DNA of 64,000 nucleotides from Octopus vulgaris (GCA_951406725.2 OX597836.1:24118001-24182000), one strand, 5' to 3'. Positions 2,499 through 53,300 are shown, counted from the stretch's first letter. Program-made: numbers and translations. Notes: a model not told the origin generated them from the letters alone.

Positions 2499-2825
2499 GT
2501 TCAGCAAAAATTTAGATTCAAATGAATATGGTAATTGATTTAGATGCACCAGAATTCTGTATGGTGTTATCCATATAAATCGTGGGGTGATTACAATCAA
2601 AATAAGCAACAAGAATGACTCCGGTAATTTCGTAAGATTGTTTCGTACTACATCATTTTATTAAATGTTGTAAGTATTTTTGTATTAATGGAAAACCTCT
2701 ATAATTGGCTGATGAGTGCTCAGCATTTTAAAACTGTTGTAATATTTACAACATTTAATAAAATGATGTAGTAGGAAACGATCGTACCAAATTACCGGAG
2801 TCATTCTTGTTGCTTATTTTGAGTG
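2499..2825. mobile_element. Penelope-like (pLTR/retrozyme-like) relic with head-to-head inverted duplication
   Basis: 77-bp inverted arms at 2597-2673 and 2746-2822 (4 mismatches). Contains a hammerhead motif, has (AT)n on both sides, and its tail is homologous to 42871-43066. Confidence 0.6.
2702..2794 (+). ncRNA. Type I hammerhead ribozyme motif (G/G mismatch at base of stem II)
   Basis: Stem I TAATTGG/CCAAATTA; CTGATGA at 2709-2715; long stem II; GAAA at 2775-2778; palindrome ACGATCGT; GTA triplet at 2784-2786. Confidence 0.75.
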
Positions 2826-3366
2826 TATATATATATATATATATATATACATACATATTTAAATGTGTGCTACTATTAGTTTCTCGGGCGCACACGCACA
2901 CAAACACATACACACACACACAGCCACACAACCCGAAGATCAAGAAAAAAGTACTCCGTCCGGTGAGAGATAAATATTGCTTAATGCACACACTAAAAAG
3001 TTATGAGATACCAATAGTTTCGTACACTGGAGATGTCTGACGGGTTTAATGACATGTCTAGAACAAGAGAAATCACGAGAAAATACGAGAGGAAGGTGGA
3101 TACAAAAAATGACTGTAAATGGCGTGGAGTTGATCTTCAAGTCCCATGCGTAGCTTGCCAACTTAGCAGATTTATTTTGTTCATGTGGCGGAATGAAGAA
3201 ATGTGGTTAGCATAGGATCTTTTGACGTCGCCTTCGTGAAACCCTATGTAATTCTTCATTTCGGTTAAGCTATCATGTAATGCTGTTGTGACTCCTGTCT
3301 CATATACGACGAAGTTTATAATGCAGACCTGGTCAAGTGGGCAAGCCCCAGGGTTTCGACAGATAC

Positions 3367-3602
3367 CTATTTATTTATTACCCACAAGGGGCTAAACATA
3401 GAGTGGACAAACAAGGACAGACATAGGTATTAAGTCGATTACATCGACCCCAGTGCGTAACTGGTACTTATTTAATCGACCCCGAAAGGATGAAAGGCAA
3501 AGTTGACCTCGGCGGAATTTGAACTCAAAACGCAACGGCAGACGAAATACGGCTACGCATTTCGCCCGGCGTGCTAACGGTTCTGCCAGCTGGCCGCCTT
3601 GA
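3367..3602 (-). mobile_element. tRNA-derived SINE family A, young copy
   Basis: A/B boxes (TGGCAGAACCG; GAGTTCAAATTCC); central GCCTTTCATCCTTTCGGGGTCGAT domain; 14-bp TSD GTTTCGACAGATAC at 3353-3366 and 3603-3616. Confidence 0.9.
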
Positions 3603-4581
3603 GTTTCGACAGATACGATTGGGAGTGAGTAGGGATGGTGCTTACGAGTAACGATGCTCTTTATACTAGGGCAGTAGCTGTATGATAATTTGATTGCGCG
3701 TCTTGATGTATTTGTAATTTTCTGAAAAATGCTTATCTACGTTTGTTTTAAATTTTAGGGAGAAGGTGGGGTGAACAAAATCATTTCCTTGGGTTTATTT
3801 TTGTGATTCATATTTTTACTTGAAAGGTTGTAATATATCTTTGAAGCTACTGTTAGCTAAGACACTGAGTTGGCTAGTCACCTCCGATGTTTTTGAGGAG
3901 CAATTCCACGCCACATACAATCAAGTGGAAAATTGTAAAAGAAAAATCCATGACATCTAAAAAAAAATGTAAGTTGTGCGTAGCTTAAAGATTGTATGTC
4001 CTTTTTAGATTTAAGAATGTTACCGCATTGGTGGTCAGAAATCCTCAGCGAATGCAATCATTTGGTGAAGTTTCTTTTGGCGAATCGGAGGATTAAGCGG
4101 TTGTATTGCAAATTTTAGACACCTTGCATTGATTCTATACTGACGAGCTTTATGGTTCTTCCTCGTTTCTTTCACCCTCCCACTTCTTGCATCCCTGTTC
4201 ATCTCGTATTTTCTTGTTGTTCTATTGTCTTGATTTGTAACTTGTATTGGCCATATGCTGAGAGGCTGAAGGAGACACCAGAGGTGTTATTAAAATCTGA
4301 CAGACAACATCTCCAATGTATGAAACTGTTAGTAGCTCATACCTATATACTGTATACATTAGACAATATATATATATATATATATATATATATATATATA
4401 TATATATATATATATATATATATATATATATATATACTTACGTACACACACACGCGCGCACACATATATATGTATATATGTATATTATATTCGCACAGAC
4501 ATAAATACATACATACATACATACATACATACATACATACATACATACATACATATATATATATATATATATATATATAAA

Positions 4582-49366: not shown

Positions 49367-49565
49367 TTATTTGAATATTTATACTATTAGCGCGCGCGTG
49401 TGTGTGAGTATAGTACACTTTACCATTAAGAACGACAGCAATTTTGAAGTTTCGTCAGCATCTTTGATGAAGGTTAGCAGTTCAAAACTTCGAAATCACT
49501 GTCACCAGAAAGTACTGAGTAATTCTTCATTCGAATGTTAATTCTATTATAACACGACATAAATG

Positions 49566-50395
49566 CAAGAGGCGGCATCAAAACATTCCCGAACCAGTTC
49601 TGTAGCGCGCCAGAGAATGGCAGTATATGGTTGCGAGCGCGGTGAAAGCAAGTGGTGACTTTCATGAGGCAGTATGCCGAGTGACATTGCTGTGTTTACT
49701 TCGCAAGTTGTGAAGTTTGTGTTTTTGTCATCATGTGTATACTGTAGACTGCGATTTTGTGATTGGCAGTAGGGAAATCAGCTACAGAGACATTGGGCAT
49801 GTTTCGACTAGCTTATGGCGACGAAGCATTGGGCCGTATGCAATGTTCTGAGTGGCATGGGCGCTTTAAAATCGGAAGAATGTCCCTGAAAGACAATGAG
49901 CGATCTGGAAGGCCTGCTACAAGCGTCACCCTCGGAAATGTGGTATTATGCATCGAGAATTTATTTCCCGGGATCAGACCCTCAAACGAGAGTTCAACTG
50001 CGACGTTTTGAAATGTCTGAAAAAAGACATTCAGTGAAGGCGACCGGATCTGTGGTGTGTGAAGAACTGGGTTCTTCACTGAGCTCTCCTCATTCATGAG
50101 TTTCTTGCCAAAACAACGCGGTATCGCTTCCGCCCTCACCCTATTCGCCAGATTTAACACCTGCAGGCTTCCATCTTTTAACACTGTTGTCGGGATTGAG
50201 AGCGAATCGCAGAAGGTCCTGGACCTTCTTACAGAAAACGACTTCCAGACCGGATTCCAAAAGTGGCAGGGACACCGGGAATGGTGTATTGCTGTGCAAG
50301 GTGATAATTTCGAAGGAGAGGATGTTTAAACTTGGGTAAATAAGTCATTTCTCTATTAAACATAATTACTCCTGGAATTTTTTGATACCACCTCG
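49566..50395 (+). mobile_element. Internally deleted mariner element
   Basis: TIRs CAAGAGGCGGCATCAAAACATTCC / GGAATTTTTTGATACCACCTCG. N-terminus GKSATETLGMFRLAYGDEAL...ERSGRP; C-terminus FQKWQGHREWCIAVQGDNFE. Confidence 0.8.
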
Positions 50396-53300
50396 TGTGT
50401 GTGTATTTATATATATATATATATATATATATATATATATAATTAAAGCGGTTTAGCAATGTATTACTAAAAAAAATACCATGATTGTCATTAAATTTGA
50501 CTTAGATTGTTAGAATACCTACAATGCTTGAAATAAAAAAGCTAAAGCGCTCTCATGCTGACAATGACCGTAAACGGCCGAAAGCGGTAGTCGAGATATC
50601 CCTATACTGTCGGATAGTTTCGGTCTTAACACCAGAGCCTCTTGAATAGAGTCGGTACTATCCGCCAGATTCCGGACAAGATTGCCACCGCTATATCTGT
50701 CTACACCATAGAAATCTATAGATGATTTGGCGAATCGCTACTGTGTATACAAATAATCAAAGCAGGCAGCAATTTAGCAATGTATCACAAAAAAGGAAAA
50801 CTATAGTTGTCATTAAATATGACTGACACTGTTGGAACACCTACAATGCTAGAAATAAGAGCAACGACTGTATGACTGTTTCAGGGAGAATTGAAAAGGC
50901 CACAAACATAGAATTAGTGGTTTTACTATTTTCCATTTTCTAACGAAACTTCATTTCCACTAGTCCCGGTAATCCGAAGTTTCAATGCAAATCCTGTACA
51001 TCAAATATTTCCTAATCACTCCAAATCTGTCTCCAGAAAAGAAAATTGCTTACATAGTGTCCAGATTAAATATTTACGATAAATTATAAAAATCTTTTAA
51101 AATCTAAAATTTATAAAATGCAAATCACCAAATGAAAACACAATTAAATAATTATCTTAACAGAAGGACTAGAATTTCAATAATGCACAAAACAAAAATA
51201 AGCAGAACCTTATTTTTTTTCTGTTTTCAATACAGAAATTTATAGCAATCTAACTTTTCACATAAATTAATTTTCAATACACTGTGGATGTCAAAGCATT
51301 GCAACAGCTCCATGTAAGCTAAATAATATAAAACATGTGTGTATACCATTCAGAAGGGCTATATAATAAATCTTCATAAATCTACTTGACGAAATGTTTT
51401 CAGGGCAAAAGACATCTTATTTCTGACAGCGCCCCATCGCTACTGCAAATAACACCTCCTCCTCATAGGAAATGACACTTAATAGTTCATCTATCAATAG
51501 CTGCTTCTACTAAAGATTCTTGTCTTAGACACTGGTTAAGTATATTGAAATTATTTTCATTTTATTAGAAAACAAGTGTCGGAACATCAAGTCATGTTGT
51601 AAGTGTAACAAGACAATAAGCACAAAGTTTGGCTACTACTTTGTTGGAGTGAGTTTTGGTTTTTCTTTCTGCGGATTAAAGCCTCGTGGAAATACATTGA
51701 ATATATTTACGAGCATGTATCTAGTAAAATAGATATTTCAGTCGATGGAATGCGTTATAAAGACCAACACACACACACGCACACGCACACACACACACAC
51801 ACACACACACACACGCACGCACAAGCACACACACATACATAAACACAAACACGCAAACATATATACATATGTACACATGAGTTCTATCCACATGGCTACC
51901 CATGGTTTCATCTAGGTATCTCTCAACAATTATCATGCCTGCCATATAGGAACGTTGCTTCTCCTCTCCATCCATGATGTTAAAGTGATTGTGCCTCACA
52001 ATTGCCTTAAAAATACGCGTGTATTTAGAATGCTCAGATGTTTATACATTTATTAATTATTACTTATTTTTCAAAATTATTATCTATTTATCGAATTATA
52101 TAAGGAAAAATTATATAAAGAGAAATCTCGCAAAAACATCCAAATTAATACATTCACAAAAATGCATACGTGTACGTTTCATTAGTTGAGTATGTCGTAT
52201 AATTAATCGAACAACTGAATCTTTACCATCGAACCTGTTGGGGATTTATCGATATTTACGAGTGTGAGGATGCACATGTATGCGTGAATATGGTTACTCT
52301 ATCTGTTAAAAAATTGCAATCACATATCAGTCTAAAACACGCTAAATAATTTGGTTACAATTGCATAAAACTTGGCACTGGTTACAGCTGCATCATTTTG
52401 TAAACACACACACACACACACACAACACACACACACACACACACACACACATATATATATATATATATATATATATATATATATATACACTTATATATAC
52501 ACACACACACAAACAAATACATTCAGTGATAGCAGGTCGAGCACCTATATAGAGGAACTCCGTTTGTCGGCTTGTCTTTACTAGAAATAGCAATTGTGAA
52601 GCGACAGTAGGTATATCATACTCACTATGTCCACATACCCACGACTAAACTGTTTCATTGATTTTCTATCTATGATACTCGCTTTGCTCGTTTTGTGTTT
52701 GTAGCTTAAAACTTCGTCGACTTTTTCTGTGTAATTTTTGCAAGGCGGTATGAAACGAAGGTATGAAGTTAGTTATGTTGGCACAAGCTTGTCTGGTTTG
52801 AACGCGTCATTTTCCCTTCGCCAAAGCTCATCAAAGCTACTCACCTGTTAAAGACAATGGCTCTCAGCAATATCTGTGCTAAAATTTAAAGCCAATAACC
52901 GCTTGCACAACACCCTAGGACTCTCGTCTATAAAGTCAAGAAGTTCACAAACAGGCAAGAGTAAAAACCTCTGACTTCGCAATGAAACGCGTGCTATTTC
53001 AGGATTTCCTTCTAGATATTCGGTGCAACGGAAATTTGGGAAATGGCACTCCCACTGTCTTATTGAACGCCAAGGCGTTACATTTGATATCTCTGTGTCT
53101 TCGTGTAGAATTGGACACAGAGATGTATACATACATATATAGAAGATAAAACAAAGATAAATGGGTTAGTGATCAGTATATACATCTATATAGGATGAAA
53201 ATAATTCATCGATAAAAATCATTTCCTGTTAAACTGTTTGCAAAATATGAGTATAAAAAATATAAACATTTTAGAAAATATATTAATAATTATCATCTTC

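Follow-up and report, generated by a model that had tools for sequence, protein, structure and literature searches.

What are the hammerhead ribozyme motifs that lie scattered over a 64,000-nt stretch of the Octopus vulgaris genome, and which elements left them there? The stretch (G000:C23:24,118,001-24,182,000, hereafter the window) had been predicted, from its sequence alone, to contain five near-canonical and five decayed type I hammerheads with a palindromic stem III and a long stem II, which were read as a dense and diverse population of non-autonomous ribozyme retroelements. On the basis of searches of the genome (2.8 Gb in 227 contigs), we conclude that three of the five near-canonical motifs are very probably the hammerhead-bearing 3′ ends of 5′-truncated Penelope-like elements (PLEs) of the Hydra type that target (TA)n, and that the other two are likely older relics. 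All five carry an enlarged stem II, which is predicted to leave the catalytic core intact; in one motif the core is mutated.

Hammerhead motifs in the window and in the genome

The five near-canonical motifs are all present, and are named here by the first position of their core (2709, 24850, 40840, 42832 and 49358; Table 1). The type I core, which consists of CUGANGA, GAAA and NUH joining three stems with stem I open, is intact in four of them and mutated in 24850. The palindromic stem III and the stem II of 54–102 nt were borne out in all five. The motifs are not the minimal type I hammerheads that the original prediction invoked, as their palindrome has 8 nt and their stem II is enlarged. 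Because 2709 and 42832 belong to related subfamilies (73% identity over 113 nt), the several families that had been proposed amount to four sequence groups, namely A with its relative A2, B, C and D.

A strict descriptor, which demands an intact core, stems I and II of at least 4 bp each and a palindromic stem III, found four motifs in the window, whereas 200 local dinucleotide shuffles yielded 0.025 on average (one motif in each of five shuffles, none in the other 195). It rejects 24850 because the core and stem I of this motif are mutated; three homologues of 24850 have an intact core and a stem II of 101–102 nt. Genome patterns made of an exact core, a spacer and GAAAC-N4-GTH, with the stems left untested, gave 16,876 matches for spacers of 14–39 nt (1,305 for the reversed-pattern control), 38,223 for 45–70 nt (1,241) and 10,983 for 75–105 nt (1,319). 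This leaves about 62,200 cores above control, or about one per 45 kb, of which about 46,600 have a spacer of at least 45 nt; some cores may fall in two spacer bins, and spacers of 40–44 and 71–74 nt and other palindrome lengths lie outside the count. The N4, which the pattern leaves unconstrained, is self-complementary in about 80 of 90 readable rows among the matches listed (55 perfectly and 25 with G-U pairs, counted by hand). In 40 evenly chosen 10-kb stretches (400 kb), we found 19 motifs, 12 of them dispersed and seven in one array, and none in 20 shuffles; stem II measures at least 39 nt in seven of the 12 dispersed motifs. Many further long-armed families exist in the genome beside short-armed ones. 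The density is high, as predicted, at a lower figure than the proposed one motif per 6 kb: intact motifs occur once per 16 kb in the window.

These counts bear on whether an AT-rich genome full of repeats could have produced the motifs by chance. A long free spacer renders any descriptor permissive, and Rfam reports no hammerhead in the window, where it gives 117 other matches at E ≤ 1. At the gathering threshold, Rfam likewise reports no hammerhead in 16 loci; the motifs missed include short-stem ones, in 10 metagenomic loci and in the octopus array L132 described below. Since short-stem hammerheads are missed too, the silence of Rfam is uninformative and cannot be attributed to the long arm. 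The shuffle and reversed-pattern controls, together with the fixed position of the motif in the pseudo-long terminal repeats (pLTRs) of PLEs and the covariation of its stems, refute a chance origin, for which we see practically no room.

Families A, A2 and B as probable 3′ ends of Hydra-type PLEs

The link to PLEs is most direct for family A. Over 768 nt, positions 42320–43086 of the window share 99.1% identity with the 3′ end of a complete copy, L129. The motif has 1,229 candidates in the genome, and all 40 that were scored are 100% identical over 181 nt. Family A loci share a fixed 3′ end in (TA)n (20 of 20) and have ragged 5′ ends, often with an inverted arm that ends before the tail. The upstream extension of one copy (L084) led into an open frame of 980 codons, and three copies (L127, L128 and L129) are complete, with a hammerhead, a 980–981-codon open reading frame (ORF) for a reverse transcriptase (RT) and a GIY-YIG endonuclease (EN), a 1.5-kb 3′ untranslated region (UTR) and an identical second hammerhead, the two lying 4,664–4,713 nt apart. 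The full-length element is therefore a partial tandem of the form pLTR-ORF-3′UTR-pLTR with one hammerhead per pLTR, and its upstream cut site lies about 210 nt 5′ of the first ATG; the ORF may be preceded by an intron. An RT search of the genome returned 9,856 candidates; of the 150 that were scored, 12 are free of stops within the match and belong to open frames at least 940 codons long. Because the majority of copies consist of a short 3′ terminal piece, the relics retain the ribozyme but not the ORF.

The family A protein carries RWK and DKT motifs, a CxCX5C linker, a C-terminal GIY-YIG domain that lacks CCHH, and CxxC and CxH motifs flanking conserved E and N residues, with no N-terminal EN. 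The element proteins have 71 homologues at E ≤ 0.001, and the nearest relatives that carry a species name are those of Octopus sinensis (69% identity, with 41% of the query covered) and of Argonauta hians (43%). Another relative, P0027, is 36% identical to the family A RT and appears by eye nearly identical to Hydra-2_Amil of the PMC8557442 supplement. In a tree of 21 RT regions, restricted to Hydra-like relatives among the PLE clades, the proteins of this genome group with P0001–P0004 (including Argonauta) at 100/100, apart from 13 other Hydra-like sequences. Long, Asn-rich low-complexity inserts lie between RT and EN (L084, 1326–4268; also L122 and L123), and ORFs with such inserts span 840–1,090 codons compared with about 700 in most relatives.

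Family A2 (1,741 candidates, scored copies mostly 97–99% identical) is represented in the window by two arms of an inverted repeat (2592–2825), of which the tail-bearing arm matches the family A tail at 72%. The pair closing stem II is G-G in the window copy and G-C in other copies. A GIY-YIG coding region, comprising the EN only, lies about 0.85 kb upstream of the motif in one of 20 loci (L342). Like family A, A2 has the CxCX5C linker, and so do L119 and L122, the latter a sister subfamily of A.

Family B (2,114 candidates, 97–99%) has a twin-ended architecture like that of family A. Its motif lies about 0.6 kb downstream of a GIY-YIG coding region, for which there are 17,393 candidates. EN and RT frames are found upstream in L192–L209, and near-complete frames occur in family B relatives, with IRW at the site of RWK. 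A (TA)n run lies within 300 nt of the cut in all 40 family B ends and in 69 of 75 family A ends. Linked RT/GIY-YIG ORFs, which the original prediction had suggested looking for, were thus found for A and B, and for A2 with GIY-YIG only, while its statement that the motifs have no ORF and escape protein-based annotation holds at the locus itself.

Two candidate features of family A were rejected. A 750-nt non-autonomous element with a fixed 5′ end at 42320 proved to be an artefact of low-complexity masking, as the copies extend further upstream, and a transcription start suggested by three 5′ ends at about −255 coincides with a short inverted repeat that serves as an inversion junction. Separately, weak coding remnants of a Hydra-like EN/RT lie at 3161–3361 (−) and 36687–36821 (+), unjoined to the five motifs.

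Families C and D and the decayed motifs

The two remaining motifs belong to sparser and more divergent families. Family C has 53 candidates, whose other copies are 69–81% identical and include homologues with an intact core; family D has 391 (other copies 74–85%), and its relatives show PLE-like twin 3′ ends. Inverted arms are present in both. No RT/EN coding sequence is linked within the 1.5-kb flanks of the C and D loci, which are short copies of 70–85% identity. Neptune-like EN pieces lie near L062 and L215 and weak Hydra-like EN pieces in L052 and L073, neither tied to the C and D motifs. Families C and D are likely older relics of PLE 3′ ends like those of A and B.

The five motifs predicted to be decayed fared unequally. 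Those at 32401, 33062 and 35830 are of short-stem-II types and 49464 is a probable half, whereas 50550 could not be tied to any hammerhead family. The repeat at 32955–33133 (−), with 32 matches among the loci compared, usually has another base in place of the conserved A in its CUGA box.

Table 1. Hammerhead-related features of the window; element assignments and cleavage sites are predicted.
Feature	Position	Strand	Core	Stem II	Palindrome	Cut	Remarks
Family A element end	42320–43066	+					5′-truncated 3′ end (3′ UTR, pLTR, tail) of a young Hydra-clade PLE, between (TA)n runs
Family A hammerhead (motif 42832)	42826–42916	+	CTGATGA, 42832–42838	42839–42898, 60 nt	ACGATTGT, 42902–42909	predicted after 42910	
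Family A2 tail-bearing arm	2499–2678	−					5′-truncated inside stem II, 3′ half of hammerhead only; 88% to L342
Family A2 tail-less inverted arm (motif 2709)	2676–2825	+	CTGATGA, 2709–2715	2716–2774, 59 nt	ACGATCGT, 2778–2785	predicted after 2786	complete hammerhead
Family B element end (motif 40840)	40760–40984	+	CTGATGA, 40840–40846	40847–40900, 54 nt	ACATATGT, 40904–40911	predicted after 40912	5′-truncated 3′ end of a second Hydra-type PLE
Family C relic (motif 24850)	24800–25006	+	CTGATGG, 24850–24856, mutated	24857–24958, 102 nt	ACAGCTGT, 24962–24969	position after 24970	old relic; Wnt intron, antisense to the gene
Family C partial second copy	23767–23834	+					5′ half of motif only; 93% to 24823–24890
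Family D relic (motif 49358)	49116–49371	−	CTGATGA, 49358–49352	68 nt	ACGTACGT, 49280–49273	predicted after 49272	old relic
Decayed short-stem-II motif (32401)	32334–32506	+					in small inverted repeat; homologue L155 has intact CTGATGA core
Abundant repeat copy (33062)	32955–33133	−					minimal-hammerhead-like, short stem II, non-canonical core
Decayed short-stem-II motif (35830)	35825–35890	−			present		judged from sequence only
Probable 3′ half of decayed motif (49464)	49430–49515	+			palindromic stem III		in inverted pair; one 32-nt homologue in L134
Hammerhead-like arrangement (50550)	50545–50615	+	broken				not confirmed; no homologue over the motif among loci compared

Retrozymes elsewhere in the genome

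Non-coding head-to-tail units with one hammerhead each, the arrangement that defines retrozymes, are found at two other loci of this genome, and the five window motifs do not show it. L210 (G000:C1:10833500-10842500, positions 2772–5337) is a young non-coding tandem retrozyme with a 594-nt unit. Its stem II has 70 nt, and (TA)n bounds it on either side. This family has 2,008 candidates, up to four tandem hammerheads and a unit identity of 99.5–99.6%; a parent PLE was not identified. L132 (G000:C1:20000001-20010000, positions 2097–4926) consists of units of about 355 nt whose hammerhead is canonical with a 13-nt stem II, five hammerheads lying on one strand and two inverted, and has (TA)n flanks. 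At G000:C1:5011305-5012441, three identical long-arm motifs recur with a 534-nt period, probably as another retrozyme family.

The window motifs might then be non-autonomous, retrozyme-like elements that never had a coding parent. No ORF adjoins any of them, C and D are without a coding parent among the loci compared, and genuine non-coding tandem retrozymes with both short (L132) and long stem II (L210) exist in the genome. Against this stand the longer copies of A, A2 and B, in which the motif is joined to RT and/or GIY-YIG coding sequence, as well as the ragged 5′ ends and the fact that the copies examined are inverted pairs or partial tandems rather than multi-unit arrays. We consider such an origin unlikely for the window motifs as a set and favour truncated coding PLEs. 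The prediction that the genome hosts non-autonomous ribozyme retroelements is thus correct for L210 and L132, although the L210 unit has no match within the window. For the window itself it fails for 2709, 40840 and 42832, whose families derive from coding elements, and 24850 and 49358 (families C and D) are undecided.

The long stem II arm

Stem II measures 51–60 nt in the motifs beside Hydra-type ORFs of this genome. Among metagenomic loci that encode Hydra-like proteins, which are distant relatives (31–38% identity to the query), 55 of 78 have a motif, and 51 of 53 distinct motifs have a stem II of 10–29 nt; the two outliers lack a proper palindrome.

Covariation of the stems among genomic copies, which the original prediction had put forward as a test, was found in groups A and B. 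In group A, 90.0% of cells are paired, 13 of 20 pairs show double changes, slid controls reach 32–48%, and none of 500 shuffles attains the score; in group B, 90.3% of cells are paired, with double changes in nine of 28 pairs but none in stem I, and slid controls reach 34–43%; kinship among the rows and their selection with a structure-aware descriptor inflate all of these scores. The register of the group A apical hairpin was set by eye, with 77.5% paired on recount compared with 28.8% in an earlier register. Family D shows mostly neutral decay. The covariation shows that the long arm forms an irregular hairpin whose base pairing is maintained by selection. The arm is best explained as an extension peculiar to this lineage, which is tolerated and makes the fold more stable, although it may also have a specific binding role.

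The palindrome points to cleavage by two molecules or two copies. Both inner palindrome pairs are complementary in every informative row of groups A and B, with double changes. Since these pairs cannot form within one molecule and are nevertheless kept complementary, dimer cleavage is indicated. Folding models agree in that the probability of stem III in the monomer is at most 0.03 in all eight motifs, and the palindrome self-duplex is calculated at −5.8 to −11.1 kcal/mol; they predict cleavage in the dimer only.

Insertion ends and a proposed life cycle

The 3′ ends of family A cluster at two sites relative to the cut, with 29 of 75 at +35 to +38 and 35 of 75 at +149 to +158; six run into the ORF and five end elsewhere. 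Two-arm loci usually have one 3′ end of each kind, and the element itself is TA-rich over a short stretch at both sites. The 594-nt retrozyme has two such sites as well: of its 32 ends, which include some arms counted twice in overlapping loci, 18 fall at +194 to +201 and another 11 at +291 to +305. At the 5′ side, eight of 24 RT-bearing loci run 103–792 nt upstream past the cut site, and 5′ ends do not pile up at the cut. In the 594-nt retrozyme, there is a weak excess of 5′ ends after the cut, with three of about 31 independent ends within 15 nt compared with about 0.8 expected. Rare variants are common to all arms of one insertion, as at position −45 in all three L128 copies.

These observations can be arranged into a life cycle. 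A lone ribozyme would be unable to close stem III, whereas the 8-nt palindromes of two ribozymes would pair as one helix, and the dimer is predicted to cut. As a partial-tandem transcript has two ribozymes, a dimer formed in cis could release a unit RNA, and cuts at both sites would yield a unit-length RNA that might be ligated into a circle. At a (TA)n tract, the GIY-YIG domain would nick the two DNA strands, and the RT would then prime at two UA-rich places in the interior of a template that is uninterrupted at the cut. Twin priming on a ligated circle, as a circle was proposed in PMC4209133, is the simplest reading of the ends and the read-through. Short non-coding circles, such as that of the 594-nt retrozyme, would borrow the PLE machinery, and its multimers are the outcome that copying of a small circle would be expected to give.

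A more ambitious form of this proposal, which we regard as tentative and somewhat improbable, is that an octopod lineage of Hydra-type PLEs made stem II a structured 50–100-nt domain with a job of its own, such as RT/EN docking or a dimer clamp, and copies RNA circles by twin priming at two fixed UA-rich sites. If true, it would explain the one-sided tail of PLEs, their more-than-unit tandems and the mobilisation of retrozymes, with one family doing so without the linker zinc finger that has been proposed to guide (TA)n targeting.

The same ends could also be left by pLTR hammerheads that are nearly or entirely dead through their enlarged stem II, with the fold kept as a protein-binding or replication signal and the tandems arising from uncut read-through or template jumps. 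The RT crosses the upstream cut without a pile-up of ends, the monomer hammerhead fold is not the state of minimum energy, PLE hammerheads have low in vitro activity (PMC4209133), and Naiads spread without canonical hammerheads (PMC8557442). A dead ribozyme is harder to reconcile with a catalytic core and NUH site that are kept across many divergent families, in some 62,000 cores above control, with the self-complementary palindrome in about 80 of 90 readable rows among the matches listed, and with the slight enrichment of 594-nt retrozyme 5′ ends just after the cut. We judge it distinctly unlikely and continue to favour 3′ ends of PLEs with predicted functional hammerheads.

Besides the inflated covariation scores, several observations weigh against this interpretation. 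With regard to the protein, the Pfam matches to RVT_1 and GIY-YIG are weak and under the curated cut-offs (E about 0.002), a sequence search of the PDB with the RT gave no match, and the family A unit of 4.7 kb exceeds published Hydra elements, which are generally <3 kb (PMC8557442). The family B ORFs (L202–L209) are without the CxCX5C linker cysteines and still group with family A proteins; since this family inserts in (TA)n all the same, the linker is arguably not required for that targeting. For families C and D, a coding parent was not found in 39 other loci. With regard to the RNA fold, the monomer hammerhead lies 2.8–14.5 kcal/mol above the free minimum at 37 °C, and unconstrained RNAalifold, which recovers the hammerhead for group A, returns a different pairing for group B and nothing of the hammerhead beyond stem II for D. 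In the family B consensus minimum, both stem I arms are paired with the stem II arms, which could represent an off state. With regard to the life cycle, there are also variants on which the arms disagree (20 upstream of the cut; 19 downstream, many of these at the junction), and read-through past the cut is equally compatible with a circle and with an uncut tandem RNA. No RNA run on record holds the sequence, and assembled contigs aligned to L129 and L210 yielded no usable ends, splice joints or circle junctions and are uninformative. Cleavage, ligation and the circle remain predicted steps.

Relation to known systems

The elements resemble the Hydra-clade EN+ PLEs of Craig et al. 2021 (PMC8557442), which include Hydra-1_Obim, in their single ORF with RT and C-terminal GIY-YIG, in the RWK, DKT, CxCX5C, CxxC and CxH motifs (family A) and in their (TA)n targets. 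They also share 5′ truncation, partial tandems, an inverted 5′ arm, a one-ended tail and, close to the 3′ end, a type I hammerhead whose stem III is palindromic. They differ in stem II (51–102 nt, compared with 12–26 nt in the published Hydra hammerheads as computed by hand from File S2), in the tail (about 115–150 nt compared with 30–40 bp in Fig. 2 of that paper), in the Asn-rich ORF inserts and in the lack of linker cysteines in family B. Hydra-1_Obim of Octopus bimaculoides is a different family of 2.5 kb with a 23-nt stem II. Two spike-moss PLE-X motifs with a long loop 2, listed there as non-canonical, are an isolated precedent for a long arm, and the function of PLE hammerheads is called unclear (PMC8557442).

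With the minimal PLE hammerheads (Cervera and De la Pena 2014, PMC4209133), the motifs share type I topology, location in the pLTR and palindromic positions after GAAA, as well as thousands of single copies that were ascribed to truncated PLEs, pairs on opposite strands and the proposal of dimer cleavage with a circular template. Dimer cleavage is established for PLE hammerheads (PMC4209133; reviewed in PMC6765202). The descriptor of PMC4209133 has a stem II of 3–7 bp with a loop 2 of 3–10 nt, about 26 nt in total, and ends in gaaannuh; the window motifs, with their 8-nt palindrome and an arm two- to four-fold longer, fall outside it. Because this standard descriptor ends at about 26 nt and three quarters of the octopus cores have at least 45 nt, such a search would miss tens of thousands of them. 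If the roughly 47,000 cores outside the published descriptor are what they seem, hammerheads would be heavily undercounted in the animals that carry this lineage.

The L210 and L132 arrays fit the animal non-LTR (non-long terminal repeat) retrozymes (Cervera and de la Pena 2020, PMC7229834), in contrast to the window motifs, which are not in tandem arrays. The 594-nt retrozyme departs from known retrozymes in its 70-nt stem II and its Hydra-type two-ended insertion in (TA)n. Neither cephalopods nor octopus are mentioned in the accessible text of PMC7229834. Li, Clavereau and Pollet (bioRxiv 10.64898/2026.07.22.740005), who sampled 31 vertebrates, three insects and one anthozoan, argued that retrozymes derive from PLE pLTRs. 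For an octopus genome, 31 recently active Penelope-like families with 336 insertions were reported (Bonar et al. 2026, PMC13282606); the words hammerhead, ribozyme, retrozyme and Hydra never occur in the main text of that paper, its supplements and library lying outside this search.

Hammerheads in PLE pLTRs (since 2014), their palindromic stem III, the truncated relics and an octopus Hydra element are therefore already known (PMC4209133, PMC8557442). Four features are new: a long stem II with covariation, by which most hammerheads of this genome escape the standard descriptor; 3′ ends at two fixed positions; a retrozyme with the same two-ended pattern; and insertion into (TA)n by a family that lacks the linker. 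The literature covered contains no account of a genome in which long-armed PLE hammerheads prevail; long-armed variants may be described in Lunse et al. 2016 or Arkhipova et al. 2017, which lie outside it. Young open-frame elements with both ribozymes, thousands of sharp-ended insertions and a sister retrozyme would make models of dimer cleavage and circles testable in one system.

Gene context and other repeats of the window

The window is 34% GC and rich in microsatellites. It contains a Wnt gene on the minus strand, of which three exons were found (near 32650–32880, 13165–13500 and 6936–7394). Intron sequence of this gene (window 6936–32880, −) holds the family C relic and the 32401 relic, both on the opposite strand.

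A dispersed repeat of 220 nt, probably a short interspersed nuclear element (SINE), is present in four copies that are 89–93% identical (3363–3595, 38772–39013, 47844–48067 and 63775–64000), with weaker copies elsewhere. An inverted pair of about 800 nt with 88% identity lies at 59846–60642 and 62364–63164. Its open frames, and those at 30972–31415 and 49813–50325, resemble by eye what we take to be remnants of Tc1/mariner transposases.

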